The notes under the pieces were generated by a model, which ran no database searches, was not told the DNA's origin, and worked only from the letters and a program-made list of their open reading frames with translations. A stretch of 64,000 nucleotides of DNA from Schmidtea nova (taxonomy: Eukaryota). Each line of letters opens with the position of its first letter. Positions within the stretch are counted from its first letter, which is position 1. Positions 16,460 through 41,015 of the stretch are shown one piece after another. The stretch lies in contig CM097883.1 in NCBI GenBank assembly GCA_044892505.1, forward strand, positions 292,454,001 through 292,518,000. Direction: 5' to 3'. The position numbers and the translations under genes are program-made.

Positions 16460-16461
16460 TT

Positions 16462-16632: not shown

Positions 16633-16905
16633 TAGCAACGGAGGGAATATAGGCCCAGGGTTGCAATTAGTTAAAATTAAAGGAAGATAGTAACGGAGGG
16701 AATATAAGCCCAGGGTTACAATTGTTGAGTAGCAACGGAGGGAATATAGGCCCAGGGTTGCAATTATTAAAAATTAAAGGAAGATAGTAACGGAGGGAAT
16801 ATAGGCCCAGGGTTACAATCGTTCGAGTAGCAACGGAGGGAATATAGGCCCAGGGTTGCAAGTGATAAGAAATAACAACAGAGGGAATATAGGCCCAGAG
16901 TTGTG
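16633..16905 (+). repeat. Tandem array: 6 x aacggagggaatataggcccagggtt with alternating linkers
   Basis: Six near-identical cores visible. Confidence 0.93.
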
Positions 16906-17419: not shown

Positions 17420-18801
17420 GACAGGAAAATTGAGTATACAAAAGTAATCCCGTTGAGAAAAGGAGAAAAGAGTGTCATAATAAAACCAACAGAGAAGAAA
17501 GTCGACAATAAAAGTAACAAAAAAGATCAGACCAGTACTACAACAAACCCAACAAAACAGAAGAAAGCCGGCAAAGATAGTAACAAAAACCCAAAGGGAA
17601 GTAAAGCAAGGCAGATAATAATACAAAAGTCGATTATCGAAAACGATAAATTATCAGTAACAAGCAACAGTTCAAGCAACAAAGAAAATCAAGCAGAACC
17701 CGAGAGAAACCCAATAAGCGAAATAGAAGTCGACAAAACCAACAACGATTATATAGAAGAAATAGAAGACGAAGTAGAACAAGAAACAGAAAGTGACGAT
17801 ACCGATAACGATAGTAAAACATCGGACAACGAATCAGCAAAGGAAACTGAGATCGACATAAATTCAAGTGACGAACATAACAGTGAACTAGAAACAAGAG
17901 GAAACGAAAGTAAAATAACTACAGACAGTGGAATTGAAATGAGCGAACCCAGAGAAGAGATAAAAGACAAATTTTCCGGAGAACCGTTTATTGGAGATGC
18001 GAGTAAACTGGAAACTTTCTTAAAGGAATTTGGCATATTCGTGGAAGTATGCAAGTGGAAACCAGAAACAACTGTAAGCAGAATTCAGCTATATTTAAAA
18101 GATAGCGCATTAGATCTATATTTGGAAGCAAAAAACGGAACTAATCCACCTACAAGTTGGTCAGCGATAAAGGACTTTTTCCAACAAACCTTCCGAATAA
18201 ATAAAGTATTGAATGAGGCATTCACGGAATTCTCAATGAGGAAACAAAAGATAAATGAATCGAATGCGGTATATGCAAGCGAATTGAAAAAGTTAGCAAA
18301 GTTGATCTTTAATCAAGACAGCCCAATAAATGAGGAGTTAATGGCAGCTATCTTTGTGGGAGGATTAAGAAGACCCGACATAAGAGCGCAAGTTGGATGT
18401 CAAGGTTGTAAACCATCGACCAAGCACTAGAAACAGCTAATAGATTTGAACTACACATGATAGGAAATGATGGTAGAATCTATTTAGCTATGGATACAGC
18501 ACAAAACGAACAAGAAGTGAACCTGAATAACCACATTCCAAATTCACAACAATTAAACCGACCACCACCGCAACGAAGGAATGAAGGGAATAAAGTATCA
18601 AACTACGGAAATCAAAGCAATTACAACCCCCAAGGACCAACGAAACAATGCAAAACATGTGGGAAATTGGGACATTGGCAACAAGAATGTTATCAGAACT
18701 TGAATTGTGGAAAATGTGGAGTAAAAGGACATTCAGAGAGCAGATGTTACACAATAACCTGTTTTAATTGTGGACGACCTGGACACCTATCAAGAAATTG
18801 C
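17420..18801 (+). CDS. gag: Gag: acidic/basic N-terminal extension, capsid domain and three CCHC knuckles; 1-nt frameshift at ~18410
   Basis: Ty3-like CA (FLKEF...LYLKDSALDLY...SWSAIKDFFQQTF...YASELKKLA...FVGGL); frame change restores TIDQALETANRFE; knuckles CKTCGKLGHWQQEC, CGKCGVKGHSESRC, CFNCGRPGHLSRNC at 18649-18801; start codon unresolved. Confidence 0.9.
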
Positions 18802-19401
18802 GGACAAAGAAGCAATCAACGAGGAAACTGGCAGAATACCGGAAACCGACAAAACTATGGAAACCAACCAACTGGTGGAAACCGACAGAATTATGGAAAT
18901 CAGCCAAATAATGGAAACCGACCGGAATACGGAAACCAACCAAATAGTAATAATAATAACCAAAATAAAAATACCACTAAAGAGATACATTTAATGCAAG
19001 AGGCTCAAAGATTGACGGAGCTGATAAACAATACAACCAGAGGAAATCCGCAAACAGGTCAACAACAAATCAACATGATGAGAAAAATAGAAAGCGAAAA
19101 CGAACGATTGAATCGGGAAAGCCAAGCACGACATGCTCAGGAATGGGCAAGAATACAAAGAGAAGAGGAACAAAAACAGCAAGAAAGAGAACGACAACCT
19201 CTAAGAATTAATATGATGAGAGCAACCAATCAAACAAATACCCACGAGAAAGAGACGGTGCCAGAAATGAATCCAACAAACCTGAATCCAACCAATAACG
19301 AAAGTCGAAAAGAAATAGTACCAGGAAGCGAAGAAACAGAAACAGAGAAGGAAGTAGAAAAAGAAGGGAACCAAGAAGAGAAAAGGAAACTCGGGAAAAG
19401 G

Positions 19402-21770
19402 GGAATGATGGTAATTTTGCCAAACAACCACGTGTTTCGATTCCAATATAACATAAAGGAAGAAGTAGGAATATTGTTCAACAAAGTGAATGAAATGGCT
19501 CCAGGAGTAACGAAACTGCCCAGAGAAGCATTCCTAAAAATAGAAGGTGCACCAGAAGTAAAATTGAAACTAACAGATACATGGGAAAACATGGGAGTAG
19601 TAGAGACAAAAAGAAATGTGATGGTAATCAAGGAAATAGAACCAGAAGGAATTCCATCGCCAGTGCGTCACGAAACACGAATCAGTCGAATATTTAAAGG
19701 GAAAATGATACGAAGACGGTTGCGAGAAATAGACGAGTTGGAACGAAAAATGAGAAAAGTCAAAGTAGTAGACGACGAGAGTAAATCAACACAAAAAACT
19801 ATCGGAAGGGAAACGAAACCAACGGAAAATCCACCAAATGAAACCAACCAAATAAAACACATTAACATGTTGAGAGGCCAGGCAAAGAATTTTTCAGACG
19901 ACGAAGAGGATAGTGACGTCAGTAGTCTAGCAGGGGACATGCTAAACGAACCAGAAATTGAAGACAAAAAGATAGAAGTAGTAAAGACACCAGAAACTAT
20001 TCAAGTAAAAGAGGACGAGATCCAGAAATTACTAGATAATGCGCTAGAAGTAATATATAATGAGGAATTCATTGACAAGAAACACTATCGAAAATTCATG
20101 AGAGCGATATTACAAATGAACTATAAAGAGTGGTTACCAGGCCGGGAAGTAGAAACACTAAGCCAATACGTAGGAAAATTATTAAAAGAACCACTCCATG
20201 AATATATAATACTAATACAGATAAAAACATGTTTGCCAAGGATTTGGATCAAAACTCCACTCACGGAGGATATTTATCAATGGGTAGAAGACAGATTAGG
20301 GAGTTCGTATAAGAACAAATTCCTCTATTCACAGAATGGACTAGTGAAGAAAAGGACGCACCTGATAGAAACAGGCATATGGCCAGGAGAGGTGACAACA
20401 TTATCGATATGCGATGATAAGATAGAAGAGAACCTACAAGAAGTAGCAAAGGAAGCAAATACGTGTTTCGAGAGAAAAATAAAACCACGGTTAGAGTACG
20501 AAAAAGGACGAATCTTACGAGGAAATCTAAATTCCATGATAGAACAAATCATCCCACAAATCAAAAAACATAGAAAGGAGTTAATGAGAAGCGAATACGA
20601 GAAGTTGAAACGATGTATCGAGTGCATACGTGACACAAGTCACACGAGATGGTCACAGATCTCATACGGAAAAGTAATTGCAAAAATGGGAAAAGCAATG
20701 TTCAGACAAGGGAAAATAACAGATCTAAAAATTTCAGTGGAACTGCCTAATGAGGATACCAAGGAAATTGAAGTGGTAGCAGATTGTACCATAAAAGAAT
20801 TAGTAAATGTCATCAACGAGACACTATTACAAAGAGAACCAGAAGAAGAATGGGAAGATGACATAATCATGAAATATAATGAACATGTATTATGGGATCA
20901 CGATGAAAGACGACTATATAAGATGGGTATATGGGACAATCACCAAACCATCCACGTTATCAGAATGGACGATACACCAAGAGAAACTGCTAAAGATGAG
21001 AAAAGAGAACGAGAACGACAAAAAGAAGTTGTGCACAAACTACAACAGATAGTAGACATTTATCGAAATTGGCGGATTTGGCCAGAATGGGAAAATGTAT
21101 TAGAAGAACTCAATCTCAACAGACGATTACGAACACCTGTAGAAAAGAAATGGAACGAGCGAGGAAAATGTTGGGAACCAAAAGCAGGCGAATACGAAGA
21201 AGAATATGAAATAGGCATAGAAGACGATCACAAACCGGAAACCGGAAGAGTCTGTATGGTAACAAGAAAAGCCATGCCAGCGGATTTAGACGGACAAGAA
21301 ACGGCAACCATGTGGTTGGAAAGAGAAAAACAAAAAACGGAAGAATTTGTCGAAATATAAAAAACCAATGCTCATGGCAAGAGAAAATTAGTAAAAGGTC
21401 TCGCAGATTTTTTCGTAGTTAATGGAGAAGACATAACATGCTTGCGTAAAGTAGCAAAAGCAATCGCCGAATACAAAAGAATTAACGAGTGGTGTCCAGA
21501 ACAATTGGATCACGTAATTAAAAAATGGAGAAACCAAGAATTCTCGCAGGAATCGCCACAGAAAGTACACCTAAGAATAGTATATCCGAACCAAGAAAAG
21601 GAAGAGTTTTGGGTAGGGATAGCGGAGAAAGTTCGAGACATTAAAAAGAAATTGAGATATGAACCACCATTCCATTTACAACACCAAGGACGATCATTAG
21701 ATAACAGCTTGGAAATTGGAATAACGCCAGCGCAATTAGATATCGCAAATACATTGACAGTGGCAGCAAT
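19402..21770 (+). CDS. Polyprotein segment with four ubiquitin-like domains; in-frame TAA at 21358-21360
   Basis: By-eye alignment to ubiquitin at ~19402-19632, ~20200-20412, ~20725-20967 (clearest: LKISVELPNEDTKEIEVVADCTIKELVNVINE...LYKMGIWDNHQTIHVI) and ~21562-21770 (FHLQHQGRSLDN). Confidence 0.65.
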
Positions 21771-22257
21771 AGCAGGTCAACCATTGAAATTGAAAGAGGA
21801 AAAGAAACCAAAAGGAAGTATGAGTACGCCGAGCCCAATGAAATCGGTAATGACTCCAGGAACAAGCTCAGAACAAGCTAGAACAACACCAAGAGAGACA
21901 AGAGAAAGAACACCACCAGAACCATACGATGTAGACGAAATTTTTACAGATAGCGATGATATGTTAGAGGAGTTAATAGAGCTAACAAAAGAGAAAGATG
22001 ATAATATTTTCGAAAGAATTCAAGAATTACCAACAGCAATACCGGTAACCAACACCGAAGATGAAGTCGAACAAGAAATAATCATAGAAGAAGTAAATGA
22101 AATAGCAGAAGAGGAAGCAAGGAGGGCAAATGTAGAAAATGTACAATTCACACAAGAAATGGAAAGATGGTTAGAAGAAAGAGCCAATGAACCAAGAGAC
22201 GTCACAGAAGAAACTGGACGAGAAACAAGATTAGTAGAAACGGGCACGACAATGGAT

Positions 22258-22281
22258 AAACGACCTAGAGGTAGACCCAAG
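22258..22281 (+). other. AT-hook motif KRPRGRPK in the polyprotein
   Basis: Canonical PRGRP core flanked by basic residues. Confidence 0.7.
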
Positions 22282-22419
22282 ATAGATCCAGCAAATGTAG
22301 TTATAAAATCAAGAGAGGAAAAAAGACGGGATCAATGGGATTTGTGTCTAAAGAAACTAAATAAAATAGCCGAAACGAAAGAAAAAGAAACAACACAAAC
22401 ATACCAAGGCGAAGAATGG

Positions 22420-22800
22420 ATATCAAAGATGTTAATGGAAATACTGGCAATAATCGATCCAGAAGTAAAGAAATGGTGGAGAATAAACGAAATAAGCGAA
22501 AGGGCGAAATCACTGCGCCATCGCACCAATCCTACCAGAACTAATAAAAGTAAAGACAAGGTCAAACCAGTTAGATTGGCAAGGAACCACGATGTTGATA
22601 AAGAAGTTAACGGAAGGAGCAGAGACGGATAACAAATATTTAATAGCTATGGCATACACCATTTACAATCTGCTGACACTGAGTAGAGGTCGACTGAAAC
22701 CCACAGCACTTGAAAGACATATAAAGAATACAGCCAAAATTATAGAGAAGGAAATAGAACCGTACATCATCAGTAAAGGAGGATGGGAAACATTCACAAA
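22420..22800 (+). CDS. Bcl-2-like domain; frameshift at ~22500
   Basis: KEIEPYIISKGGWETF versus Bcl-xL BH2 DHLEPWIQENGGWDTF; degenerate BH1-position helix KYLIAMAYTIYNLL. Confidence 0.75.
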
Positions 22801-22918
22801 AACGAACCAAAAGAAAAACCAAGCCAAAAATATGAAAAAGAAATTCGAAGAGATATTGGGAGAATTGGAAAAGGAAAAGTCGGGAACAGGAAACGGGAAA
22901 TCATCACTAAACTTGAGT

Positions 22919-24735
22919 TCTATCATTATGATGATGTTAATATGGATGATTAGTACTGACGGCGCAACAGCATTTGAAGTATTCGATTGCGATCAAATGG
23001 CATTAGGTGAAAAATACTCATTACGAGGGACAGAACAATGTAAAGACGCAACCCCAACGGAGCTAAAAACATTAAAAAAGAGACAATTATACCACGTATA
23101 TCAGGAAGCTGAAATGATAAGAACAATGGTCAGAGAATGCAAAGTTTATAAAACCAGATTTGCTTTTTATTGTGGACACCGCCATTATTCAGCAATCGTG
23201 ATGCCAGGAACGGAAAGAGAATCGGTAATGCTGCAAGGAGAAGACTGTGAAAAATTATTCAAACATGGAGAAGTAGAGACTAGAGATAGAGTAAAGATAA
23301 GAGGAAAAACGGGAGTGATATTGCAACAAACATATTATGTAGCAGGAGCTATTACGGGAGGAGAAGGGTACTGCCAAGGAGCAACATATCCAATATTCGG
23401 AGTAGCAGCAACAAACCTAGTGGTAATAGATACCTATACAGTAGAATTAAAAACGTACGAGGCATTCTTCGATCCAACAACGGGAGAAATGAAAACCCTG
23501 CCCATGTGCAAAATCGAGTCAAACACTTGCCAAACCGGTATGTCAACCTTAACATACCAGATACGAGGAAAAGAATGTCAACTACAACTGTTAAAGGAAG
23601 CAGAATTCGATGAGATACAAGGGAAAACCTTCCAAGAGGAAGAAGAAGACGAGGCAGCAAGAGGAAAAATACTTCAAGACACAGTACGGGGAGAGAAAAA
23701 GATTGAAACCCGAACACAAGAAAAACAAATTAAAATGAGAAATACACCAACGGTACTAATTACCTCAGATGCAGATATCGGAATGAGGTTTGTAAAAGGA
23801 AAAACAGCCTTGAAATGCGGAATAACCATGTTGGAAACCAACTACCCCGGCATTTTCGTATCGAAACAAGAAGTACCTAGTGCGAAACGCAAAGTGAACA
23901 CGAACGATGTTAAATTACACCTTTACATGAACAATAAGATGGATTTTCTATTCCATAGAGGACAAGCGTCACTACAAAAAGTGTATTACGACTTAATTAA
24001 CAACGATTGCATATTAAATAGGGAAATATTAAAGACAAAACTAGCAGTAGCAATCACAAACCCGGATAGTGCAATGCCACTATTACCATTGAGAGAAGGT
24101 CATTTTGGAAGGGTAGTCGGAGAGGTCATGTATGTATACATATGTAAAAAGACAAACGCGAAGGTAGCGACAATGACAAAATTACAACCAGGTCAGTGTA
24201 CTAACGAACTAGAAATCGAATATAAAGGGAAAGTAAGATATGTGCAACCAGTGACAAGAATCATAAATCCAGTAAGCTTCGAACCAAACCCTTTCAATTG
24301 CAGCAACGCATATGGACCACTATACCAAAAACCAGACGGGAATTGGGTTATGTTTCCGTCAAGAACAGAGGTACCAGCACCAAGGGAATTTGAATTGATG
24401 CAACTATCAAAAGGACGAAAATTTAAAGACGTAGATGTAAGTAATATGGGATTCTATAGCGCAAAAGACTTAGAGGCAGCGAGACAAAACATACTATTTC
24501 CAGCAAGAAGGGAAGCGGTGCTATCCAGTATTGTAACAATAACAGGAGGAACAAATTACCAAGGTGGACCAAATTAAGAATTATTATTGTCACCAGCCCA
24601 CTTTAAGAAGGCAACGGAAAACATGATGAAAGCGATGTGGGGAAGATTTTTAATATTTGGACAAATGATGGCAGGAATACTTGGGGTTATACTAATTATA
24701 CAAATAATACGGGTAATAATAACGCAAATGTTAGC
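22919..24735 (+). CDS. env: Envelope: internal signal peptide, class III (chuvirus/gB-type) fusion glycoprotein and TM; in-frame TAA at 24575-24577
   Basis: SSIIMMMLIWMIS..ATA|FEVFDC...YSL....C; ECK...FYCGHRHYS; NDCILNREIL...GEVMYVYIC...CTNEL...QPVTRII...CSNAYGPLY; TM FGQMMAGILGVILIIQIIRVII lies after the stop, in the same frame. Confidence 0.85.
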
Positions 24736-25284
24736 CTGTTTTGACATCTATAAAAGAGAAAAGAAAGTAAATTGGAAATTGGTGGTAGGATTCTTACCAT
24801 TTTTGGCTAAAACAATGGTATTACACGGTCATTCAAAAGATATTCACCGAATAAAGAGACTCCTAAAAATACTGGCAAAAATGAAAGGAACCGATGAAGA
24901 GGTGGGACGAAAATTTAAAAAGATAATGAATAACGAGCAAGCAAGACAACAACTAAAGAAAGAGAGAAAAGGACTATGGGAAAGAATGAAAGGGTACAGA
25001 ACCCAAGACGATTCCAGTGACGACGATGATGATGATAACGAAGGAGGTCAAGTATTTAAAAATCAAGTACCACAGTACGTCGAAAAGAATCCAGCGGAAA
25101 TGTGGAAGTGTTACGCACCCCCACCAACCATGTACCAAGAACCAACACCAGGGATGAGACAAAATACAATGCAAATGATGCCGATGACAAACATATATCC
25201 TATGATACCAGAAGACTATAGAACGAGACGGTGCAGAAGCGTAGATCCGCAAGGAGACTCACATACAATTGCAGTAATGTCATC

Positions 25285-28200
25285 AAACACCGGTCCAGTA
25301 TTAACTACAACAATCGAAATTAACGGAAGGGAAATAGAAGCGATGATTGATACAGGAGCAAATATCTCAGCAATAGATATAAAATGGATACCACAAGAAC
25401 AAAGACGGGATATTGAGAGAACCAACGTTCACGTAATAGCATGCAGTAAAGAAGTAGTAGAAGTTGCCGGAAGATGGTGGGTAAAGATAAAACATCAAAA
25501 CACGGAAATCGAAACGTACGTAGCAGTAATACCAGCACTAAGCGTACCATGCATTATAGGCACGGATCTGATGCCAGCATTATTTAAAGAAATAGTTATT
25601 GATCTCGGAACAATGAGACTAAAGGATAGGACAGGACAGATATGCGCAATAGAAGCAAAAGTAACAAGTTCGAAACAAATAATCGTACCAGCACGGAGAG
25701 AGAAAATATGCTTCGTAAAAATAGACCCTACAATAGAAGGTGACATGATTTTTGAACCCAGTAAAAGATTTGAAAAGAGAAAGTCGTTGCCAATGGCAAG
25801 GGGATTAGTGAGTGCGAATGAAAACGGAGAAATCCCAATAAATGTAGTAAATTTCGATGAAGAGGATAAAATAATTTATGAAAATGAAAGATTAGGTAAG
25901 CTAACTCCAATGATGGATATCGAAATACCAATAAGAGAGGGAGAAAAAGATGAAGAACCCACCTGGAACATTGATAGCCAACTATTAAATGAGGATCAAA
26001 AGAAACAGCTAGAAAGATTACTGATAGAATATAAAGACATATTCGCAGCATCCGATTTAGATCTAGGGACATGCGACGTCACACTACATACGATTCCACT
26101 AACAGACGAAACGCCGATTGCGTTAAGACCATACAAGTTAGCTGAAGCGCAAAAATCAGTAGCAGAAGCAGAAGTACAGAAAATGCTAGACGCAGAAGTA
26201 ATTGAACCAAGCTGCTCACCGTGGCAATTCCCAGTTGTAATGGTGAAAAAGAAAGACGGAACACAACGATTTTGTATTGATTATCGGAGATTAAATTCAG
26301 TTACAAAAAGGGATACATACCCATTACCGGACATCAACGAGATGTTATTGACATTACAAGGAGCGGCATATTTTACATCATTGGATTTGAAAAGCGGATA
26401 CTGGCAAATTAAAATGAAGGAGGAAGACAAAGAGAAAACTGCTTTCACTATCGGAAGAGACTTGTACCAATTTAGGAAAATGCCATTCGGACTAACCAAT
26501 GCGCCAGCATCATTTCAAAGATGTATGAATTTCGTTACCCACGGCATAAAACAATGCATGGTTTACATTGATGACCTACTAATCTACTCAAGCACATTTG
26601 AACAACACATCCAAGATATCAGAGATGTATTTGTGAGATTGAGACAATGGAAACTCAAGCTCAAACCATCGAAATGCGATTGGGCAAAAGAGAAAGTGAC
26701 ATTTTTAGGACATATTGTGTCCGCAAAAGGAAAGGAACCGGATCCCAGAAACATTGATAAAGTAAAAGAATGTCCAATACCAAAGACTATAACGCAGATC
26801 CAAGAATTTATCGGATTATGCGGTTTCTATAGAAAATTCATAAAGGATTACGCAGGAATTGCAAAACCAATCCAAGAGCTAGTAAAGAAAGACGTATCGT
26901 TCATATGGGGAACCGAACAACAAACAGCTTTCGAAACATTGAGAGACAAGCTAATAACTGCACCAATATTGGTTCACCCGGATTTCAAAAAGCCATTTTT
27001 ACTCGCAACCGACGCAAGTGGATATGCAGCAGGAGCAGTGTTAGGACAATATGATGACGAGGGAAAAGAGCGGGTAATCGGATATTATAGCAGAACATTC
27101 AAGAAACACGAGAAGAATTATTCAGTAACGGAAAGAGAAGCATTGGCAATAATATTAGCAATAAAACACTTCAAATATCTATTATGGGGACACATTATAT
27201 GCATAACCACAGACCATCAACCACTTGTATGGCTAGGACAACATAAGGAAACATCCAGCAGGTTAATGAGATGGGCGATGCAATTACAAGAATATTCACC
27301 AGATATAAAATTCAAATCAGGAAAAGCGAATGCCAACGCAGATTGCATGTCAAGATTAACGTTTCCAGAACTAACAGACCCAGAAGTGCAAAGAATATGC
27401 ATAGTGATAGCAGAGGATTTGGATTTCAGCGAGTTAAAGAAAGATCAGCAAGAGGATAAAGAACTAAGATCCATCATAGAATTCCTAAGCTCACGGAATA
27501 TGGATGTATTCAAAGACAATGCGGAGTTAAAAGAACACATGAGGAAATACCAACATCGATACACAATAGAAAAGGATGGTTATTAATACAGGATGGAGAA
27601 AAACGATTAATGTGTCTGCCAGGTAATAGACGAAAAGAGATAATAACTCAATACCACGACGGAAAGTTGGGAGGACACATGTCCGATAAGAAAACATTAG
27701 ATCGCATGAGACAAAAATATTATTTGCCAACAATGGACGAGGACGTAAAGGAATGGATAAAGAACTGTTTAACTTGTGCCACAAGAAAGGATAGTGGGAA
27801 GAAATGGAAAAATCCCTTAAAACCCATGCCAATACCAGCGGAACCAATGACTACCATTGCGATGGATGTAATAGGACCATTGCTAGAAAGTTTAAACGGG
27901 AATCAATATATATTGGTAATAACGGATTATTTGACTAAATTCCCTGAGGCATTTGCGATGCCGGATCAAAAAGCAAAGACCGTAGCAAGAATTTTAGTAG
28001 AGGAAATATGTTGTCGATACGGAACCCCGAAACAAATACTAACAGATCAAGGAACAAATTTTATGAGCGAAATATTAGATGAAGTAACAAATTACTTCAG
28101 AATAGCCAAATTACGAACGTCACCATATCATCCGCAAACTAATGGACAAACGGAAAGATTTAACGGCACATTGATTCGAATGTTATCCAATTATGTAAGC

Positions 28201-28740
28201 AAACACCAAACAGATTGGGATGAGTACATAAAGCTATGTCTAATGGCATACCGAATGTCGATACACGCAGCAACAAAATTGAGTCCATTTCAATTAATGT
28301 ATGGAAGGGAATGCAATATGCCAATAGATCTTGAATATCAACCACCTTTGTCTCAATATATGGAGGAAGATGATTACGTCACCAAATTCAAAGAACGAAT
28401 GCAAGAGATATGGAAGACAGCAGAACTAAACATAAAGTTTTATCAAGAAAGTTACAAGGACCTACACGATCAAAAGAAAAATGTTAAAACAAATGATCTT
28501 AAACCCGGAGATTGGGTAATGATAGAAACCCCAGAAATAATACCAGGAACCGTTAAAAAACTACAAAGACCAGGAAAAGGCCCTTACGAAGTTATATACA
28601 AAAAGGAAAACAATGTGAAGGTAAAACTTGTTAATCGACCATTGATACGACCAATATACGTTAATACATGCAGATGTAAAAAAGTACCAAAGACAATAAC
28701 CACAGCGCCAGAAGAACGAATAATAACCAGATCCCAGACA
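25285..28740 (+). CDS. pol: Pol: aspartic protease, dUTPase-like spacer, RT, RNase H, integrase; 1-nt frameshift at ~27581
   Basis: DTGA 25349-25360; YIDD 26564-26575; TDASG...EREALA...TDH...NADCMSR; HHCC finger, MDVIGP, TDQG, QTERFN, GPY. Confidence 0.97.
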
Positions 28741-28769
28741 GCCAGAATGAATATGCTCAGAGCAACCAA

Positions 28770-30470
28770 TGAAAGTACCGAAGCAGAAAACAATCAACAA
28801 GAAAAAAGAAACAAGGAAATTGTACTAAAAGCCAGAGAAATGATGGGAAAATGGCATGTCAGAGACGATATATTAAGAGATATACAATTGATAATTAGTG
28901 ATTACGCAAGGGGACTACCAACAAAACCAGTCATTTCAGAACTACTGGAGAAAATTCCAGAAATACTTTCACTACAAGACATAGGAGGACAACCAGCATT
29001 ACATAACGCCATAAAATTGGGAGAAGTAGAGAGAGTAAAAGAATTTCTAAAAATCGCAAAGGAAACAAACCAACACCTTGGTTTTGGGAATAGCGAACAA
29101 GAAACACCATTAATGGTAGCAGCCATCTACAAATCGGATAAAACAATAATAGACCTTTTGATAAATGCCGATTTCAACTGGACGGAACGCGATAGAGAAA
29201 ACAAAACAGTCTTGAATCACGCAATATGGAGCTCAAATCAGATAATGCTCAAACAAATAATCGAGAAGGCCACTTGGGAAATAGACGAACTGATCAAGGG
29301 TGATATAATAAAGGAAGCAATAAAAATCGGTAACTGCAAAACAATACGCAAGCTAATAAAATGGAAAAGATCCGAAAATGATACATGGGTGCTAAATATA
29401 AACGAGGTATACAGTGAAGGACAAAACGCGTTATTACAATTCCTATTAAAATTAGTTTGTGATCAGAAAACACTGTTAATATTATTGGACAGAAGAAATA
29501 TCACAATTTCCAAAAACAAAGAGGAGTGTAAATTCGAAAGTGAAAAAGAAGCATTATTCAGGAAAATTAGGGAATGGTGTGCAAAATCGCTAACCAAGTC
29601 GATAACTTACAAAGATATATCCAATTTTCAAGATAAGTACAAAACGGTGGAGGAAGAGTATGACAAACTAGTAGACATATTAAACCACCCCGAAAAATGC
29701 AAACAATTCCTATGTCAAAAGGAAAGAGAAAGCAAAAGGAAATTTACACCACTTTTCAGCGCAGAGGTACCATATCAAGAAAGGTTGGATGCGATACAAG
29801 ACAAAGCAAAAGAACTATTACCAGAATTCGAAAATTCTAAACATACACTGGAGATACTCGGAGCAATTGTGGAAAAGGTACACGCATACGCGGAAGGAAC
29901 TTACAATGAAAACGATATGATGATCATAAAAAGAGAAATGCCAGTGACTTTCTTATTAACAAAGAAGGGAGTATTGCCAATACATAGAGCCTTACGAGCA
30001 GGAAAAGATAGGAGGGTAGTCGAAATTGCACGGTTGATGCAAGATTGCGGAAGTGACATGAACATGAAAGATAAATAGGGAGATACCCTCATGATATTCG
30101 CAGCAAGAGCGAACACAAAAACCCGAGTGTTACAGGAACTGTACGAAGCAGGTGCAGGACTCATGGGAAGAACGGGCAAAGACAGCTCAATACTAGACGT
30201 AGCATTGTTAACGCACAATTGGGAGGTGATAAATTTTATAAAAACAATCACAAATCAGGAAGAAATAGAATACCTTACAAGGACAGTTAAAAAAGCTAGC
30301 GTACATTCCATGATGCATAACGCTGAACTAACCGAAGCAATACTCAATTGGATGAACCCAAACACCAATGAACCAGCATTCAGGATCAACGAGTTCATGG
30401 AACAAGGCCAAAAATTTGTATATAAAGTGTGCATTAATAATAAACAAATGGCCAAAGATAATGGACAAGA
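28770..30470 (+). CDS. Ankyrin-repeat region fused after integrase; in-frame TAG at 30076-30078
   Basis: GQPALHNAIKLG, ETPLMVAAI, DRENKTVLNHAI, GVLPIHRAL, KDK*GDTLMIFAA, SSILDVAL. Confidence 0.88.
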
Positions 30471-30566
30471 AAAAAAGAAGAAAAAAAGAAGAAAAAAAGA
30501 AGAAAAGATTTACGATTCACAAACAACCCAAAAGAAACAGAACGTACGGACAAATGGAAAGAACTA

Positions 30567-32912
30567 ATGAAAACGTACCTTAATAATTGGATAAAAGCCA
30601 AGAAAGAGATTCTAGATTGTAAATTAACCGATAAGGAAATACCTAAGCAGGCAGAAACACAAGAATATGAAGCAAGTATACTCACAACCATAACGTATGA
30701 AAAAATGATAGAAGCAATTAATGTCGAGGACGACATTTTCAACGACCAAAGGGGAGGCGACAATACAGGAAACGACGACGATAGTACTCGAGAAAATCCA
30801 GAGGATCATGAGTTATCAGATAAAGAGGACAGTGAAGAGAAAGGAAGGGACACAGAGAAAAATGATAAGAAAAATGAATTTGGGAAACAAAGAAACAACA
30901 ACTATAAAAATAAAAACGAAGCAAAAAGAACAGGCTACAAACAAACAATAAACCCATTCTTTAAACCAGAACTATTATTACTAACGGTAATCATGACCTT
31001 AATTAGTCCAACTCAAGGAATGATATGTGAAGAAAGAGCGACAATACAAATTAGAAACGCAAAAGGAATCGAACGAGTATGTTGGTCAAAAAAGGACAAA
31101 ATCTCGGGACAAAATAGTCAAATGGATTGCAGGATCTCAGAATACGAACAAGAAATCATAGAGATCGATGACTTAGAGCTAGATACTTGGTACAAAATAT
31201 GCACCATCAGAAAACAAAGGAATCCAAGATCACACAACACAATCGCATGTGCAAACTACCTAACACCCAAAGTAACCATAACAGTACAGCAGTCATCCAA
31301 AGGAGACTATGTCGTAGGAAAGTGTGGAAGAACAGAGACACAAGGAACAAAAAACAAGAAACCCCAGACAATAGACAGACGAACAACGCCAACTATACGA
31401 ATTACAATAGACAAGCCCGAAGCAAGAGTAACCACAAACGAGACCGAAAGAGTGACCTACCAAACAGAATTACTATGTTTAGCACTCATATTAACAATGT
31501 TAAAACGGTTAGAAGAAGGGATAGACATTGACACAATGGCAGTAACAGAGATGAACGACACCCAAAATACCAACCCAAAGTGTTGGGCCCGAAACAACGA
31601 AGAAATTGGCATAAGCGAAATAAAGAGGAGTCGGAAAAGGAAAACAAATAAAGTAACCAAGATACCAAAAGTAAAAGCAGACAGGACGTATGAACTATGT
31701 TTACTAGAAAAAGAAAGACACAAGAAAGGAACGACAATTTGTAAAACATTTCAACCTGGGGAGGCAATAAAGTTCATAAGAAGAAGAAGAAGAAATATAC
31801 GCACCAAACGGAGAACAACTATAATGTTAGAGTTAACCGGGATAGAACCGGACGTCAAAGGCGTATGCTGGAAGAAGCAGGAAAAGAAAACAAACCAGAA
31901 TATACCGCCGCAATGTCGAACAAACAGAGGAACAACCACAATACAGATCGAAGGATTAGAAAGCAATCAAACGTACGAAATATGCCTGATTAGGAAAAGC
32001 GACAAAATAACAGTAAATGAATTGGAATGCAAATTATATAAAACACCCACCAGAACAAGAGTTGGAAAGACATCGCGAAAAAGTAGAAGACAACGGAACA
32101 AAGGAAAAGCGAGGTATACCACTACCTTTAAACCTAATGGACAACAGAAAAACCAAGAAATACAAATAAAAACCGAAAAGAATACTACAGCAACTCTTAT
32201 ACTATGGAGAATAGACAATAAAACGTTAGAAATATGTTGGGCAGTAGTTCAGGAACAAAAAGAAAGACAGCCACGATACTGCGAAAACGTAAAAGGAAAA
32301 GAAGAAATGAGTATCAAAAATCTGAAATTTAATAGAGAATACGAGATATGTGCGGTAGAAAAGACGGACATATTGGGAAATCAGCAGGAAAGATGCGAAA
32401 CGTACTACACACCGGTAAACTCAACGTCCAAAGGGAAAGTGAGAAAACTCGAATTTAAAGAATTAAGTCAGACAACGAAACAAATGGACGCAGAACAAGT
32501 AGTAATAGACCCTTACGCAAGATGGACGCCGGAAGAAGTAATTAAAGAAGTTAAAAGAAAACAACAAGAACGAGAACAATTACTAAATAAACTAAAGGGA
32601 CAATACGGACCAATGATTACCCAGAGTGAAATTACGAAGATGGACGTAAACAAACAAGTTAGAGAACTAATTGGTCTAGGAATACTAGCAGCAACTATTC
32701 CAGTAATAACAGTGTTATTAATAATATGGATATACGATGTACTCAACAAGAAACCAATAACACATTGGCCAGATATAAAAATTATGAACTACAGAATAGA
32801 ATTACCGGAAGAAGTACAGAAAGAATTTCAAAGGAGGACGAAAGGTAAAGAATTTTGGAGACAAATAGAAGATGAAGAGCGGTACGAAGGAAAGACAGTG
32901 ATGGTGATATAG
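30567..32912 (+). CDS. 781-aa membrane protein with four Cys-containing FN3-like repeats; frame open from 30462, probably continuous with the polyprotein
   Basis: Signal-like ELLLLTVIMTLISPTQG; repeated W...I..L....Y.IC motif (IDDLELDTWYKIC, IPKVKADRTYELC, IEGLESNQTYEIC, IKNLKFNREYEIC); polybasic linkers; TM LIGLGILAATIPVITVLLIIWIY. Confidence 0.75.
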   Translation: MKTYLNNWIKAKKEILDCKLTDKEIPKQAETQEYEASILTTITYEKMIEAINVEDDIFNDQRGGDNTGNDDDSTRENPEDHELSDKEDSEEKGRDTEKNDKKNEFGKQRNNNYKNKNEAKRTGYKQTINPFFKPELLLLTVIMTLISPTQGMICEERATIQIRNAKGIERVCWSKKDKISGQNSQMDCRISEYEQEIIEIDDLELDTWYKICTIRKQRNPRSHNTIACANYLTPKVTITVQQSSKGDYVVGKCGRTETQGTKNKKPQTIDRRTTPTIRITIDKPEARVTTNETERVTYQTELLCLALILTMLKRLEEGIDIDTMAVTEMNDTQNTNPKCWARNNEEIGISEIKRSRKRKTNKVTKIPKVKADRTYELCLLEKERHKKGTTICKTFQPGEAIKFIRRRRRNIRTKRRTTIMLELTGIEPDVKGVCWKKQEKKTNQNIPPQCRTNRGTTTIQIEGLESNQTYEICLIRKSDKITVNELECKLYKTPTRTRVGKTSRKSRRQRNKGKARYTTTFKPNGQQKNQEIQIKTEKNTTATLILWRIDNKTLEICWAVVQEQKERQPRYCENVKGKEEMSIKNLKFNREYEICAVEKTDILGNQQERCETYYTPVNSTSKGKVRKLEFKELSQTTKQMDAEQVVIDPYARWTPEEVIKEVKRKQQEREQLLNKLKGQYGPMITQSEITKMDVNKQVRELIGLGILAATIPVITVLLIIWIYDVLNKKPITHWPDIKIMNYRIELPEEVQKEFQRRTKGKEFWRQIEDEERYEGKTVMVI

Positions 32913-33037: not shown

Positions 33038-33394
33038 ATGAACGAACAGGAAGAAATAGCAGAAACTACTATGGCTATGCGATGGAAAGCCCAGTGTGAC
33101 ATGTTAATACGAACAATCAACTCACTACAAAATCAGTTAATGGAGAAACAGAATTTGTTATCCGAAAGTTATAATAATAGTTTTGAGCAACTCCACAGAA
33201 TCGAGGAGCAACAGAGATTGATAACGCAACTTACCAGAGAGAATCAAGCGATAAGCGATATAAACCAAAGGCAAGCAATAGAGATAGACCGTTTAACAAT
33301 GGGAGAGACAGAAGAAGCAGAGGATAGATGGACAAATTGGGCAATAAACAGATCAGAAAATGACCCAGAACCAGATTCAACAAACGAGCCGTAG
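33038..33394 (+). CDS. 118-aa coiled-coil protein, unknown function
   Basis: ATG ORF bounded by AT-rich spacers; heptad-like Q/E/L pattern. Confidence 0.65.
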   Translation: MNEQEEIAETTMAMRWKAQCDMLIRTINSLQNQLMEKQNLLSESYNNSFEQLHRIEEQQRLITQLTRENQAISDINQRQAIEIDRLTMGETEEAEDRWTNWAINRSENDPEPDSTNEP

Positions 33395-33485
33395 ATAAAT
33401 AAAGCGAAAAATTGTAAATATGTAAAAACAAAAACAAGAAAAATCAAAAAATAGATAACAAATCAAGTGTATATATCATTGTAGA

Positions 33486-34868
33486 ATGAATACAGAAGGA
33501 AAAGCCGAAGAGCGGATAATCGAAATTTTGAGAGCCGAGAACAGGAAATGGAGTCAGAGACTCACTTGTGTAAATTGTAAAAACATAATATTGAAACCAA
33601 GACAAACCCTATGCGGATGCAGAGTATGTACCAAATGCATACACGAGTTAAGTATGAAAAGACCACCAGAATGTCCAGAATGCAAAGAAGGACAAATAAA
33701 ATTCGAAGAAACCGGACCAGATAGAGCAACTCAGAGAGAAATCATGAACACGAAAACCGAATGTATAAATCAACCATGTATATGGCAAGGACAAATACGC
33801 GATCTCGAGAACCATCTGGAGAACTGCGAGGAGAAGAGAACTGAATGTAACAAATGCCAACAAAAAATAACTATAAAGAATAAAGAGCAGCACAAAGATG
33901 AATGTAAAGAAGAGGAAAGTCTATGCGAATATTGTGGAACTCGAGAAACGAGGAGAAAGATCGAAGAAGAACACCTGAATGTAAAAGAGGAGAAAGTATG
34001 TAGACAATATGTAGGAATATGTTCAAACGAATGCGAGATAACGGTAGAAGTAAAATTACAAGAACATTGGAAAGTGTGCACGGAGAAACCAAGGGAATGT
34101 CCTTATAACAAACAGGGATGTATGGAGAAAAGAACGCAACAAACCATGAAACAACATCTGGAGGAAGCATTGCTAAAGCATGCGGAAATGACAAACGAAG
34201 CAACAAAAGAAACCGAACAAACAATCAAAAAATTAGAAAGAGAAATAGAGTCACACAAGATAATGGTAAACCTACTGTTGGAAACCAGAGAGCAATTCGA
34301 ACTAACACGAGAAAAGATGGAGGAAAAGATAAAAGCTATCGAAGAATTGGCTAAAGGAATGAAAATCCAGTAAAACAAACTCACCCAGGATACCGAGGAA
34401 AAGCTACCAATCGCACCATATGTGTGGAAAGTGACAGATTTTAGAGACAAATTAACAGAGGCCAGAAATATGACGAAAACAGCAGTAATAAGCCCACCAT
34501 TTTATTTATGGAGAAACGGAGCTAAAGTGAGATTGAAGCTATACCCAAATGGAGACGGAAGAGGACGGGGAACACATGTGTCAATATTTTTCTCGCTATG
34601 TAAAGGAGAATACGACGACCTCGTAGAATGGCCCTTGAAAGTAGGAGTCATTATAAGAATCAGAAGTGTAACAAAACCGGTGGAAAAATTCTTTGAGACA
34701 GAGAAACATGCGAGCACGAGCGAGAAACCAACCACAGAATGTGGATTAGCAGCGGGAGAACCGATGTTTATAACGAAAGAAAGCCTATGGGAACGATTAT
34801 ATGCAGACACCCTATACATAGAAATGGAAAGGAATGAGAAAGCGGATAGAAAAGGATGGTTGACGTAA
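33486..34868 (+). CDS. Full-length TRAF-like protein (RING, TRAF zinc fingers, coiled coil, MATH); in-frame TAA at 34371-34373
   Basis: CVNC...PRQTLCGCRVCTKC...CPEC; PDRATQREI...C....C.WQG; WKVTDF...ISPPFY...KVRLKLYPNGDGRGRGTHVSIFFSLCKGEYDDLVEWP. Confidence 0.92.
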
Positions 34869-34981: not shown

Positions 34982-36043
34982 ATGGGAAATATCGAAGTAT
35001 GCTTACAGGAAATTACGATGCATCAAGCAGAAGCGATTAGCGATCATCTAGAACAGATTGAAATATGGGTCAATGCATATTATGGAAAGCCAGAGGAGAT
35101 AGAGAGACAAGCCGAATTATTAAAAGAAGCGGAAAGATCAAGTCAAAGAAATCGAGAAAAAATAGAAGAAGTATACAAAATGCTACAACAACAAAAGGAA
35201 TATTACCAGGGAATGATGAAAGAGCGACGAGAGGAAAGAGACAGACAGCAGATGGAAGCTGAACACAAGATGTATTCGATTACAGAACAAGCAAGATACT
35301 GGAAGAAAGAAGCGAAAGAATCTTACGAAAAAGCTAGAGGAATAATAGAAAAGACAGCTTATAGTGATGACTGGAAATTATATAAAGAAATCGACGAATT
35401 AAAAGACGAGTTAGAACAGAAAATACACCAAGAAGTGTTGAATAAGAGATGGAATACAAAGAGACAGCAATTTATCCGGGAACAAGCAAAGAAAATTAAA
35501 GGACTCACCTATCAAGTTCAAAGAATGGGAGAAGAACTAGATAATCAAGAACAACTGAAAATTATGCTCACCGGAATATGGAATCAGAAAGAAGAAGAGA
35601 TGAAGAGAGATATAAATGGTTATCAAGGAGTGATTACCCAGAAGAAAATAGAGCTAAAAAGAACCAGAGAAAGGTTAAAGGAAGAGAAACAAAGTTATGA
35701 GGAAAATTTAACGAATTTGATGAAAGAAAACGAAGAATTGAAACAGAAACGAGTAACAGTATCAGTAACACCCAAAGAAGCAAGTATAACGGCAGCCGTA
35801 ACAAAAATGATGAAAGAAGACGAACAAAAGACAAAAGCAATCGAATTAGAGAAGCAAATAGAAACATTAACAGAACAAGCAAATTACCTAGAATATTTGC
35901 TGGACGAGGAGATCCAGATATCTCACATGTATCGAGATGAAGTCGAAATGTGGAGGAGCAGGGTTGTTTGGATACCACTCCCCACGAACCAGGTAGAACC
36001 TCAGGACGAAGGTTTCTATGAACCAAATGAGACGATTGTGTAA
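34982..36043 (+). CDS. 353-aa coiled-coil protein, unknown function
   Basis: Long uninterrupted E/K/Q/R-rich ORF. Confidence 0.75.
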   Translation: MGNIEVCLQEITMHQAEAISDHLEQIEIWVNAYYGKPEEIERQAELLKEAERSSQRNREKIEEVYKMLQQQKEYYQGMMKERREERDRQQMEAEHKMYSITEQARYWKKEAKESYEKARGIIEKTAYSDDWKLYKEIDELKDELEQKIHQEVLNKRWNTKRQQFIREQAKKIKGLTYQVQRMGEELDNQEQLKIMLTGIWNQKEEEMKRDINGYQGVITQKKIELKRTRERLKEEKQSYEENLTNLMKENEELKQKRVTVSVTPKEASITAAVTKMMKEDEQKTKAIELEKQIETLTEQANYLEYLLDEEIQISHMYRDEVEMWRSRVVWIPLPTNQVEPQDEGFYEPNETIV

Positions 36044-36125: not shown

Positions 36126-36697
36126 ATGAAAAAGCTCAGAATACCGATATTCCTATACCTAATAACAATCACCCTACAAAGAGAAGATCTTCAACTCACA
36201 GAGAAGGAGCTACGAGCCCTACCCGAGAAAACCTATCAAGAGCTAGATAAACTAATCAGCGAAGCAACACAAGAAATCACCCAACTTCAACAGATAACAT
36301 TAGACAACCCAAACGACGAAAAATTTCAACAGACCCTATATGAACATCGAATCAAATTGAAAACAATCAGAAAACCCTAAAAGAAGGTCGAGAACCCATA
36401 AAAAGCTTAGCCCAAGCAGAGATAGAATATCAAGAAAAATGGATCATCGCAATTATAATAATCCTTGCACTCAGCGTGACCATTATCGCGATCACAATCC
36501 TCATAACATCATACCGAGTGAAGATCCTAAAACAAAAACAAGTTATCCTGAATCGAACAACAATACAAGACATCAGAACCCAAAAGCGAATGAGAAAACA
36601 CCTAAACCGAATCCAAAGCCACTACGAACTACGAACAATCAGCGAAAGAACCCCAATCCAATCCAATACCAATCATGAAATCAAAGAGCTTGTGTAA
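36126..36697 (+). CDS. ~190-aa small type I membrane protein, reconstructed across a frameshift at ~36370
   Basis: Signal-like MKKLRIPIFLYLITITL; after the frame change ENPKRRSR (furin-like), then TM WIIAIIIILALSVTIIAITILIT and a basic tail. Confidence 0.55.
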
Positions 36698-36886
36698 AAC
36701 TGATAAATTACATTCACTTTATGTATGATCCACGTACAATTAACAATAATATGACTTTATGCTTAAGTATAAAAACTTATCACCTTATGTGATTCTTTGT
36801 GTATATGTAAATTGACATTTATCTGTTTAATTTTTATGTATGATGATATAGGTGTAAATGTATGATTAATTGCGGGACGCAATTTT

Positions 36887-36901: not shown

Positions 36902-38289
36902 TGTTGGGCCAGCCAAATAGAGGGAAAAGTGAAATAAAAGTGGAATAATTAAAACAAAAAGAGAAAAATAAGGTAAAAAGGGGAATATTAATTTGTTAAA
37001 AGAAAAGAGTAATATAGTTAAAATATAGATAAATTAAGAACAAACTATAAATAAAAATAAATGAATTTCTAGATATTAACGGGCCCAGGAGACATCTAAA
37101 AACAAATAAAATACAAATAATAATAATTAAAACCAAATAAAAGTACTTGTTATTGAATAATTGTTTTTGAAACCCAGACCTCCGAGGAAGAATACAATCT
37201 AAAAAAAATAAAAATTAATTAGAATCAAAAATAATAATCAAACCCACCATGAAATTGGCCAAACTTGATTGGTCAGTCTAGACCCGACTGATCAGTATAA
37301 ATACTGATCAGATTTTGAACATAATCAGATTGTTAAGATTGAAATTGTTAACCCCAGACTAAGTTGAGTTACATAGCATAACCAGACTGAGATCAACAGC
37401 TTGACAGAATTTTTCAACACTACAGATTAATCTTTGACCAAATTTTGTTACAAGTAGACAGACTGAAATCAATATTCAAAATTCGATAAGCGAAAAACAG
37501 CAATCTATAACCGGATCAATTAGGTACTTTGGTTTCATTTTCGTTTTATTATTTTTGTCATTCGATTCATGTTGATCATTTATATGTATTTATATATTAG
37601 AAATAAATTTTATTAACATAATATCGAATTTTTCATCATATTAATTTTGCGCCGATTGGGAGCTTTAGGTTCCCAAGGTGTCAATCCGTGGCGTGGTGCT
37701 CGAGGGCTCCACACACGGTAAAGTAATAAATAAATTACGATTTTTAGTAGTTGAAGAGATTTGCACATGGGACACCCAACGAATCCGGGGAATTATTTTC
37801 CGATCATTTTAGCTATAGAGGAGGCGATTTTCAGATAAAGTCTAACGATGTAGGATAGGAAAGAATTTTTTTTTTTTTTTTGACTGTGAGGAGGCACAAT
37901 TTTTCACCCTCACCACAGCACAGTCACTAAATAAACATCTAATCAACCGTAGAAAATTATGTCGACCGCATTTGATACGAAAGGGGCGTTTTTCCGGGTA
38001 AGCTAGGAGGTACATGATGTGAGAGAGTTTCCGTTTTGAGATACAAATGTTTCGAGGTCCACGCAGACAAATCACCAATTTTCGACTATATTATTGATCG
38101 TAAACCGATAAATCTAAGCAGACACGAGAGTAATGTATACCGTAACGAGCAACAGTTTTTTCTTGATTTCAGTTAAGGTCTAAGCCGAAGGCAAATAATA
38201 AAGGCATCACGATGAGAGATAACATCTACTATAATTAATTATTGATTTAAATTGTTAACTATTATAAAATTCAGCATCGTTCTAGTATC

Positions 38290-38766
38290 ATGACTAAACA
38301 CAGATTCACCATCAAAAAGCGACGAGAACGAGCCCGAATTAGCCCATTAAAGCCGGCTCCATTTGAAATTTTGCAACAAATCCATCAAAAAATGTGGGCA
38401 TGGCGCCGAGAGCTTGAAACCGCATGTCCATTTACAGTATGGGACCATCCACGGCATCACGTATGGTACCCGGGATGCGCTAGCTGGCCAATCATTCCAG
38501 ACGAGGAATTCGAATCATGGCACGCCGCCTGGTTCGTCCTGATGTTAGATAAACGGGGATTCCCGAGATGTGTAATCTATTGGGGGTTCATTCCAGCCTC
38601 CACATTCAAGGAATTGGGGTTCACTTTCCATACAGCAATACGACCCCTTCGGGAAGCCGAGAGGATCCGTTTTCAGCAGGCCTCGTCCAACTCCACTGGA
38701 ATCAGCTCTCATCTACAAATCAGATCGATATTTTCGTACCGAGGGAAAGTGACCGAAGATGGATAG
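38290..38766 (+). CDS. LTR ORF1 copy in the 3' LTR
   Basis: Protein identical to 12945-13421. Confidence 0.65.
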   Translation: MTKHRFTIKKRRERARISPLKPAPFEILQQIHQKMWAWRRELETACPFTVWDHPRHHVWYPGCASWPIIPDEEFESWHAAWFVLMLDKRGFPRCVIYWGFIPASTFKELGFTFHTAIRPLREAERIRFQQASSNSTGISSHLQIRSIFSYRGKVTEDG

Positions 38767-39102
38767 TTGAATCAATGGCCACCTGTTCTAAATTAAATAA
38801 ATGTTTTAGAGAAATCTGAAGTGTTTCATTTTGTTAATAGCGCTATAATGTAGATGAGAAATTTATTAACCTCTAGTGTTGTAGATATTACAGTCAGTAG
38901 GACATTCTTTCACTAATGTAAAACAGTTGAGTAAGAATTTTGAGCCTCCAATCATTAAATAGAAAAATAATTTTTGTGTAAAGATTTAATACTTAAACAC
39001 AGTAGTATGCATTTTTGCTCCTAAATCGTAAATAGTCACTTAATTAAAATGACCTTGTTGATAGGTTCTCCAGCGAATTTATCGTTATAATATTCAGACA
39101 TC

Positions 39103-39687
39103 ATGCCGGTTTCAGAAAACTCGAAGAGAATCATGGGACAAATCCAAGATAGAAAGTTGAGGGACCAGCAGCGGCAGATCAAGCGACTCACGGTCGCCAA
39201 TGATGAATTGAGAGCGAAGTGGTTCTCGCCCGAACAAATGAAGGACCAATCGAAAAAACTCGAGCGAATGCAGGAAGCACTGGCCGCAACTAAATTGGAA
39301 CTAGACGCCGTCCAGAGAGAACTACGAAATTGCCTAAAGGCAGTAACAAGAAGTTATATCGACTCCGAATTACGAGCGCTAATCCGGCTGATCACGGCTC
39401 AGCGCTGGACACAAAGTACTTATCAAGATGTCGCTTGCGGGACGGAAGATGGTATCATCATGGCCCCCACTCTTGTAACGCCCGATTTGCCTACTTTTCA
39501 CAGTGATCCATCGAGAACAATGGCGTCAGCACCTGTCCTAAACCAACAGCTTCGAAAACACCGAATGGGATCGCGACAGCGTCGTCGTCGCCGAGAATTT
39601 GCGAAGCGCCTGGACGAGCAAATCCACCACTTGAACTCCTTAACCGAAGCGGAGTTGATTCAGGAGATTAGTCTGGAGTTTGCGTAG
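39103..39687 (+). CDS. LTR ORF2 copy in the 3' LTR
   Basis: Four amino-acid differences from 13758-14342 (T>A, P>L, M>T, A>P). Confidence 0.8.
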   Translation: MPVSENSKRIMGQIQDRKLRDQQRQIKRLTVANDELRAKWFSPEQMKDQSKKLERMQEALAATKLELDAVQRELRNCLKAVTRSYIDSELRALIRLITAQRWTQSTYQDVACGTEDGIIMAPTLVTPDLPTFHSDPSRTMASAPVLNQQLRKHRMGSRQRRRRREFAKRLDEQIHHLNSLTEAELIQEISLEFA

Positions 39688-41015
39688 GAAAACATCAGTG
39701 TCAGATAACAACCTGTTTTTTTTTTATTTTAATAAAAGTGTTTTTTGTGTAAATTTTGTCTCTCATCGTGTGATTTCACTAAATAAAATAAATGACTCGA
39801 TTAAATCATAGAAATAGAAAATCTCATCAGTATTTTTCTCGGACCGACCGTTTCTACGTAGAGACTGATTAATTACCTTGTAGATCCGTTAAGGAAAGTG
39901 CAATTGGGGAAAGCGGGTGATAGATCATGAGGACAGGTAGTATAAAATTCATGGGGAAACGAACATCCATAGAATGTAAATGCGTAAGACCTTCTATCGG
40001 CAGCAAGGACCCGAGGGAAGATAAATGGGGAGTAGTTTTGGCAACAAAGCTCACCTGCCCATCATTTTTCCACCACTGTATGCAGTACCAACTTGACTAG
40101 TAGGGAATAGGCAAGGGCATACGCGTGTAGTAGTCATGTTATGTATGGTTATGGGCGTGGAATCCCTAGTATACGTACTCATCAATAGTCGTTCAATTTA
40201 TGATTAACTATTTATTTGAATTACTTAAAACCCACCCATAATCCCAACATAAATATATTTGATGGGTTCGCAGATGATGAATACAAAATGACCTCAGTTC
40301 CATAAAGCCAGCAATGAATGAAAATTAAAAACGTGATCAGTCTAGCATTTTTCTATGTTTCGTGTAATTAAAAATGTTTAATAATAAATTTTTTGATGTC
40401 TCAGCAAAAAATAAATGCTACTTAATAACTTTTGACAAGTATTATATCGCTTTTTACAATCTTATTTGTTTTTGCCTATTTATTTAATCAAGTTTTGCTT
40501 TGATTACTTTCTGATTTTCCTTTCAGTGTTGATGTACATAGCTTAAAACTGATTTAAGATAAAAAAACAAAATTTAAAATTTCAGAAGAATCTGGACGTG
40601 TAGGATCAAAATGGATTCCATTTTCTTAATCACCTCAAAAATCTGATCTAGAAAAATCTAATGCTGTTAATTGAATCTAAAAAAAGTTTTTTGTTGCCCA
40701 GTGTAATTTATTAAATATATAGGTTTTTTTTATTATCAAATATTAACTTAAAATATATATGTGATTGGAAATTTCAAATACTCGAATACTAACAAAAATT
40801 GAACTGAATTATTCCTTGCTAGAGACGATGCTAAAATTGAGTTTTCTTCAAGAATAATTTTTATTACTTCATGTTTCGACATTATTGATAAAAGATTCTA
40901 GAGTTAAAAATTAAAAATAATGGTTTTAAATTAATTAAATATACTTTAAAGATAATACATTTTTATATTATTTTTATTTTTGGGATAAAATCCGCCTAAT
41001 AAAATGAAAGAAACT

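Follow-up and report, generated by a model that had tools for sequence, protein, structure and literature searches.

The window, i.e. the whole 64,000-nucleotide stretch of DNA analysed here, contains a giant Ty3/gypsy LTR element of Burro type whose 3' part carries a TRAF gene (33486 to 34868; coordinates written in this form, with 'to', are on the forward strand), and we consider it very probable that this is a selected accessory gene of old host origin. The gene is normally whole in its family, with 460 codons in open copies, and the copy of the window, interrupted by a stop codon, is decaying.

Architecture of the TRAF gene

A preliminary description had listed a RING with Cys at the His position, TRAF zinc fingers, a coiled coil and a MATH domain, in native order and without introns, and all of these are seen between 33486 and 34868. 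The RING (33567 to 33683) has eight Cys ligands, as in the host planarian TRAFs, at residues 28, 31, 43, 45, 48, 51, 63 and 66 (CGCRVC), and is followed by the TRAF zinc fingers (33756 to 34184, Pfam zf-TRAF), the TRAF-N coiled coil (34185 to 34391) and a MATH/TRAF-C domain of the TRAF2/3/5 type (34410 to 34835). Pfam matches on the window TRAF were MATH_2 (E 4.5e-22), TRAF-mep_MATH (2.8e-19) and zf-TRAF (3.9e-5), while the Pfam RING models stayed below the cut-off in every element TRAF row. In comparison with structures, the MATH domain matched TRAF5, TRAF3 and TRAF2 with E values of 1e-22 to 1e-20 and the RING region matched the RING structures of TRAF6, TRAF5 and TRAF2 with E values of 3e-11 to 6e-10. 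The predicted structure of a natural open copy (pLDDT 85.5) finds its best folds in TRAF3, TRAF5, TRAF1 and TRAF2, and in the model of a sister copy (L002) the coiled coil is one long helix, residues 229-302 with a pLDDT of ~90, directly before the MATH domain. The receptor-site residues of the element MATH are partly retained, with a serine stretch that varies among families. Trimerisation and the binding of receptor or adaptor tails are putative properties of the element TRAF.

The view of the gene as a complete TRAF fails for the window copy, since an in-frame TAA (34371 to 34373) splits it, within the coiled coil, into a product of 295 aa without MATH and a separate MATH piece. This stop is private to the window copy (1 of 30) and absent from all the others. 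The gene is open over 460 codons in 25 of the 30 closest copies, a fraction skewed to young copies because the sample consists of the closest 30, fetched from 40 scored, among 646 candidates. Six stops were seen among these copies, each confined to one of them.

Seven host TRAFs likewise run from RING to MATH in a single open frame with no intron in the coding region, so that the absence of introns is uninformative on an mRNA route and the argument for mRNA capture drawn from it does not hold. An intronless gene is compatible with capture through RNA or DNA, and the two cannot be told apart from the sequence; template switching in reverse transcription is the usual capture route for LTR elements. 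Nor can the change from His to Cys be read as a sign of decay, because host TRAFs share it: of 13 host rows examined nine match a RING, and all nine have the Cys, as do 7 of 7 further planarian-type proteins with such a match and 6 of 62 other TRAFs. The host TRAFs of the source genome are closest to Dugesia and Dendrocoelum proteins, with 70% identity for one of them, which points to a planarian-type host.

The element and its putative expression signals

The element, a member of what we call family A, spans 28.7 kb (11553 to 40249), with TG...CA ends and a probable 4-base target duplication. Its 5' LTR (11553 to 14903, ~3.35 kb) and 3' LTR (36902 to 40249) are identical at 3336 of 3347 aligned bases, with 11 sites differing. 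The polyprotein region (17420 to 32912) is broken into 8 open pieces in the window copy, with fewer in sister copies, and contains gag, zinc knuckles, a Bcl-2-like domain, a fusion glycoprotein (env), protease, RT, RNase H, integrase, ankyrins and an FN3-like membrane protein. The env lies between gag and protease (PF24664, E 1.8e-57) and is in frame in sister copies. The Bcl-2-like domain (approximate limits 22402 to 22823), split in the window copy, was modelled from a sister copy with a pLDDT of 66; the top PDB matches listed all belong to the Bcl-2 family (best E 0.003), and the Pfam Bcl-2 match of the same region reaches only E 0.11. The assignment to the Burro type rests on size, LTRs, domain order and cargo, the element being likened to Burro by description: the order protease-RT-RNase H-integrase in a giant LTR element is that of the type, and ankyrin, IAP-type RING and MATH domains of Burro-type cargo were found by profile match. 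The TRAF gene lies in an A-rich stretch that the two LTRs enclose.

Besides the TRAF gene there are several accessory ORFs. A stand-alone ORF near the 5' end (15251 to 15712, dN/dS 0.09) ends in an IAP-type RING (zf-C3HC4_3, E 8.6e-12), and no BIR was found in the window element by pattern scan. An ORF of 118 aa (33038 to 33394, dN/dS 0.08-0.09) precedes the TRAF gene in all four families that carry it, and a coiled-coil ORF of 353 aa (34982 to 36043, dN/dS 0.07-0.09) follows it. A further 3' ORF (36126-36700), frameshifted in the window copy, begins like a signal peptide and includes a membrane segment; its homologues measure ~190 aa in family A2 and ~175 aa in family B. Each LTR holds two ORFs of 158 and 194 aa (12945-14342 and 38290-39687) with no Pfam match, still recognisable in other families at 27-38% identity. 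Short tandem repeats occupy 16195-16910, in the 5' untranslated part. Outside the element we noted a hAT dimerisation fragment (10085-10762), an integrase fragment of another LTR element (51558-52274) and a C4 zinc-finger piece of nuclear-receptor type (61247-61723).

In the spacer between the 118-aa ORF and the TRAF gene (33398 to 33484) the upstream stop is followed by an AATAAA, and a T-rich tract leads up to an AG one base ahead of the TRAF start, in a manner suggestive of a splice acceptor; in all four families such a tract ends 1-3 bases before the TRAF start. By a criterion fixed after the sites had been seen, an acceptor-like site precedes 13 of the 495 internal ATGs in the window, including 3 of the 5 stand-alone ORF starts. 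These sites suggest that the accessory genes may be read from subgenomic RNAs. Coverage of the stretch in four runs of one study was even, with deeper LTRs, as expected of DNA, and none of the rows listed had a splice-like joint at an acceptor site.

The C-terminal membrane part of the polyprotein (30567 to 32912) ends in a conserved cytoplasmic tail of 55 aa. The preliminary description had suggested that the TRAF might signal to the element's own membrane proteins. Such a TRAF would serve the env tail or the FN3-like protein as adaptor, in a private receptor-adaptor pair. The membrane-protein gene does lie just upstream of the TRAF gene, and families A, A2 and B share its tail (55-73% to that of the window); against this, the canonical TRAF-binding motif is absent from the A and A2 tails and has one unconserved match in B, and family D keeps a full TRAF with neither env nor membrane segment. 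The predicted complex of MATH with the membrane-protein tail scored 0.22 (mark 0.34). Lacking a conserved motif in the tails, and with a family that has no env or tail, such a pairing is weakly disfavoured and we regard it as unlikely. The tail, conserved in three families, opens with a W-P-D-(I/V)-K motif, which we take to resemble the membrane-proximal box of cytokine receptors.

Distribution among element families

A full TRAF occupies the same slot, after a homologue of the 118-aa ORF, in four families (A, A2, B and D), the proteins of A2, B and D being 78%, 53% and 36% identical to that of family A. An exact 25-mer from the window MATH has 244 matches in the genome (0 for the reversed control), which fall in family A and in at least one copy of A2; one 25-mer of family B has 70 and one of family D 958, which amounts to more than 1,200 places. 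Family C carries MATH alone, within the polyprotein, in the stretches seen (L062/L063). Internal deletions in two family B copies (L068:1527-5438 and L072:1-3357) have joined pieces of pol, with the frame kept, to either MATH or the membrane protein.

Family D, the largest of the TRAF-carrying families, has an open TRAF in 19 of its 20 closest copies. Its polyprotein stops short of the membrane segment and there is no env; in three LTR-to-LTR copies with near-identical LTRs, protease and ankyrin are present, and gag, env, RT and integrase were absent in searches with family A queries (15 and 8 stretches). A BIR-RING IAP follows the TRAF directly, the BIR being found in family D only. The protease is 70% identical to that of C and 53-54% to those of A, A2 and B, and the LTR is 76-94% like the family C LTR. 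Since both protease and LTR are nearest to C, family D is likely, as judged by these comparisons, a non-autonomous partner of family C. Family D also has a long coiled-coil ORF and several seemingly secreted or membrane-bound ORFs, and is young and very abundant (loci L126-L128 and L164; L166, L152, L153 and L165; L169, L154, L167 and L168).

These families bear on whether the TRAF serves the life cycle of the element itself, through ubiquitin-dependent handling of element proteins (sorting, budding or turnover) instead of host signalling. The TRAF is conserved like the other accessory ORFs, and the element combines an env with several ubiquitin-related domains (also PMC6431247). However, family C manages with MATH alone in the stretches seen, and family D, which makes neither capsid nor RT, retains the full gene; such a role is very unlikely.

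Origin of the gene

The proposal of an old host capture, ameliorated since, is borne out by the phylogeny with host TRAFs together with the element-like composition described below. In the full-length tree (22 rows chosen from 88 collected, mixture model) the four element TRAFs group together as a single clade (97/95), apart from the host genes and within the planarian TRAFs (100/100), although the branches are long and the differing amino-acid make-up of the element rows can draw them together. The clade falls outside both host clades that hold Dendrocoelum orthologues, in agreement with a 54-row tree, and its sister is P0033 (97/94), a 452-aa TRAF on a 2.8-kb contig that may stem from a related element in another planarian. 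In AU tests the pairing of the element clade with the host TRAFs L035, L077 or L067 alone was rejected (p 2e-4, 4e-4 and 2e-6). The best host TRAF is 32% identical to the element TRAFs (range 26-32%). Outside the source genome no close relative was found, with 12 matches at 23-30% over most of the length, and the best full-length homologues among the 150 matches listed are 29-36% identical. A single capture from a planarian TRAF long ago is likely.

The branching of the TRAFs, ((A,A2),B),D, agrees with the protease order, in which D is closer to C. In a 50-row MATH tree the MATH of family C joins the element clade (98/94), and its separate capture from the host TRAF2A-like clade was not rejected by the AU test (p 0.09). 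The deepest split among the proteases has families with a full TRAF on either side; the ancestral state is therefore likely a complete stand-alone gene, with the fused MATH a later derivative or an independent gain. A co-capture of IAP and TRAF from a host locus near L035 was also considered and rejected, the IAP-like ORF at that place being an inserted family D element.

Selection and composition

Between A and A2 the TRAF has a dN/dS of 0.08-0.13 overall, at a dS of about 1-1.4. By domain the values are 0.06-0.26 for the RING, 0.09-0.25 for the zinc fingers and 0.05-0.14 for MATH, with dS saturated in the coiled coil. Values of 0.07-0.10 were obtained for the remaining accessory ORFs, of 0.15-0.25 for the membrane protein and of 0.003-0.004 for RT. 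Within family A, nonsynonymous and synonymous variants number 15/24 when shared among copies and 34/24 when confined to a single copy, for a neutral expectation of 2.4-3.8. At fourfold sites A makes up 56-71% in the element TRAFs (56-59% for the TRAF gene described above), 64% in pol and 30-39% in the seven host TRAFs, which upholds the reported A-rich codon usage and confirms that the element TRAF is ameliorated to element composition. The broken window copy would suit a neutral passenger or a recent host retrocopy, but in view of the 244 exact matches, the dN/dS of ~0.1, the best host identity of 32% and the AU tests these readings are hardly credible; a recent retrocopy at this one locus is ruled out by the same evidence, as the element TRAFs are an old ameliorated clade.

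The preliminary description also considered a dominant negative. In its classical form, with the RING lost, this misfits, because all domains are under purifying selection, and a subtler decoy may be considered, in which the element TRAF would use its MATH domain and coiled coil to occupy receptors, adaptors or TRAF trimers of the host without passing on a signal, so that a TBK1/TRAF response elicited by element nucleic acid is damped. Conservation between A and A2 is highest in MATH (88% identity) and lowest in the RING (58-61%). The hydrophobic pair of TRAF6 (C-P-I-C-L), which has a role in E2 binding, is missing in the RINGs of A, A2 and B yet present in the host TRAF L035. Furthermore, a planarian TBK1 pathway is reported to limit foreign DNA expression and to induce TRAF2/3/5 homologues (PMC13563047). 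On the other hand, the four families retain every one of the eight RING ligands as well as the zinc fingers, with the RING dN/dS given above, and human TRAF2, TRAF3 and TRAF5 signal without that pair, while TRAFs that do not bind E2 can aid a partner RING (PMC5702613). E3 ligase activity of the element RING is putative, and the decoy reading, the main rival of the one proposed below, seems to us rather improbable.

Discussion

We propose a role for the TRAF as survival adaptor in those host cells in which the element is active, and give this interpretation about an even chance. Its expression would use a subgenomic RNA formed with the acceptor-like site just ahead of the start codon; the protein would form trimers by way of coiled coil and MATH, join the TRAF complexes of the host and there supply or recruit ubiquitin-ligase activity, most likely with the element's IAP-type RING proteins, in analogy to TRAF2 with cIAP, so that stressed cells are tipped away from caspase death; surviving host cells would then hand on more element copies. 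In mammals the BIR is the part that binds TRAF2, so the step in which ligase activity is supplied or recruited is weakest precisely in family A, whose IAP-like ORF has a RING and no BIR. The RING, as the least conserved domain and without the TRAF6 pair in three families, would also count against a survival adaptor. We nevertheless favour this role because knock-down of a host planarian TRAF leads to more cell death (PMC7586133), the Burro1 IAP is reported to protect stem cells (PMC13465017), and the window element pairs its TRAF with IAP-type RING, Bcl-2-like and ankyrin domains. Contrary to it, the only viral TRAF found in the literature covered, that of the iridovirus ISKNV, is reported to promote apoptosis (PMC3352826).

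More speculatively, and with a distinctly lower probability, an ancestral Burro element may have carried a complete TRAF, and family D, by losing gag, env, RT and integrase, may have turned into a mobile TRAF-IAP signalling cassette, transported by a helper family and repaying by protection of the host cell; the element TRAFs would then outnumber the host TRAF genes and may be a working part of planarian survival signalling. The TRAF-IAP pair is the core of the animal anti-death ubiquitin complex.

Among known systems, the closest are the Burro / GYPSM1 elements (PMC6431247), of ~30 kb, with gag-env-pol in one polyprotein, ankyrins and Bcl-2-like, IAP-related and MATH_TRAF_C cargo, the MATH of Dugesia tigrina lying in a separate upstream accessory ORF. 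Of the TRAF, the part of that account covered here names the MATH domain alone, whereas in the present genome a stand-alone slot at the 3' end holds an entire RING-zinc finger-coiled coil-MATH gene; this is so in four families, one of which lacks gag, env, RT and integrase. The published form of Burro, with nothing but a MATH domain fused to the polyprotein, also occurs in the source genome, in family C. Like the Burro1 B-IAP (Lee et al. 2026, via PMC13465017), the TRAF comes from the host, has a proposed role in survival and is retained by an element of this kind, but that IAP was tested by experiment and the TRAF is known from its sequence. The TRAF2-like genes of planarians (Smed-TRAF-2A/B, PMC7586133; D. 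japonica TRAF2A; D. lacteum TRAF-2/-4/-5) share its architecture and Cys RING, together with a helix insert in the zinc-finger region and, in the source genome, a single-exon coding region; the element TRAFs differ from them in their 26-32% identity, separate clade, A-rich codons and hundreds of mobile copies. ISKNV ORF111L (PMC3352826), likened here by description, is likewise a TRAF-like gene on a virus-like element that acts on host death signalling, but it belongs to a fish DNA virus and is reported to promote caspase-8 apoptosis via TRADD.

MATH cargo in Burro is thus known; a full selected TRAF of a single old clade and a TRAF-IAP family without RT are apparently new, as no report of a full-length TRAF in an LTR element or of a non-autonomous TRAF-IAP family was found in the literature covered, which left aside subscription papers and supplements (Lee 2026, Grohme 2018 and Jurka 2007 may cover part). 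What the Burro literature labels as a MATH domain would accordingly belong to a selected full-length signalling gene with one old capture, retained across diverged families and, in a non-autonomous one, beside an IAP. If the gene works as inferred, the Burro1-IAP mutualism extends to a second survival gene, testable by family-specific RNAi. An NF-kB reporter would be a poor first readout, because a search in a planarian is reported to have turned up no clear NF-kB homologue (PMC13563047). Our genome searches for TNF-receptor and Rel domains gave no match, and as their controls gave none either, they carry no information on the point.

For TRAF counts, RNA-seq mapping and RNAi design in planarians, the element-borne copies, more than 1,200 in number, also need to be kept apart from the host genes, among which there is a separate tandem expansion. 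The host MATH/TRAF tandem arrays (G000:C2:405000000-455000000) are separate from the element-borne copies, and many of their genes have the N-terminal part and the MATH domain in different frames.
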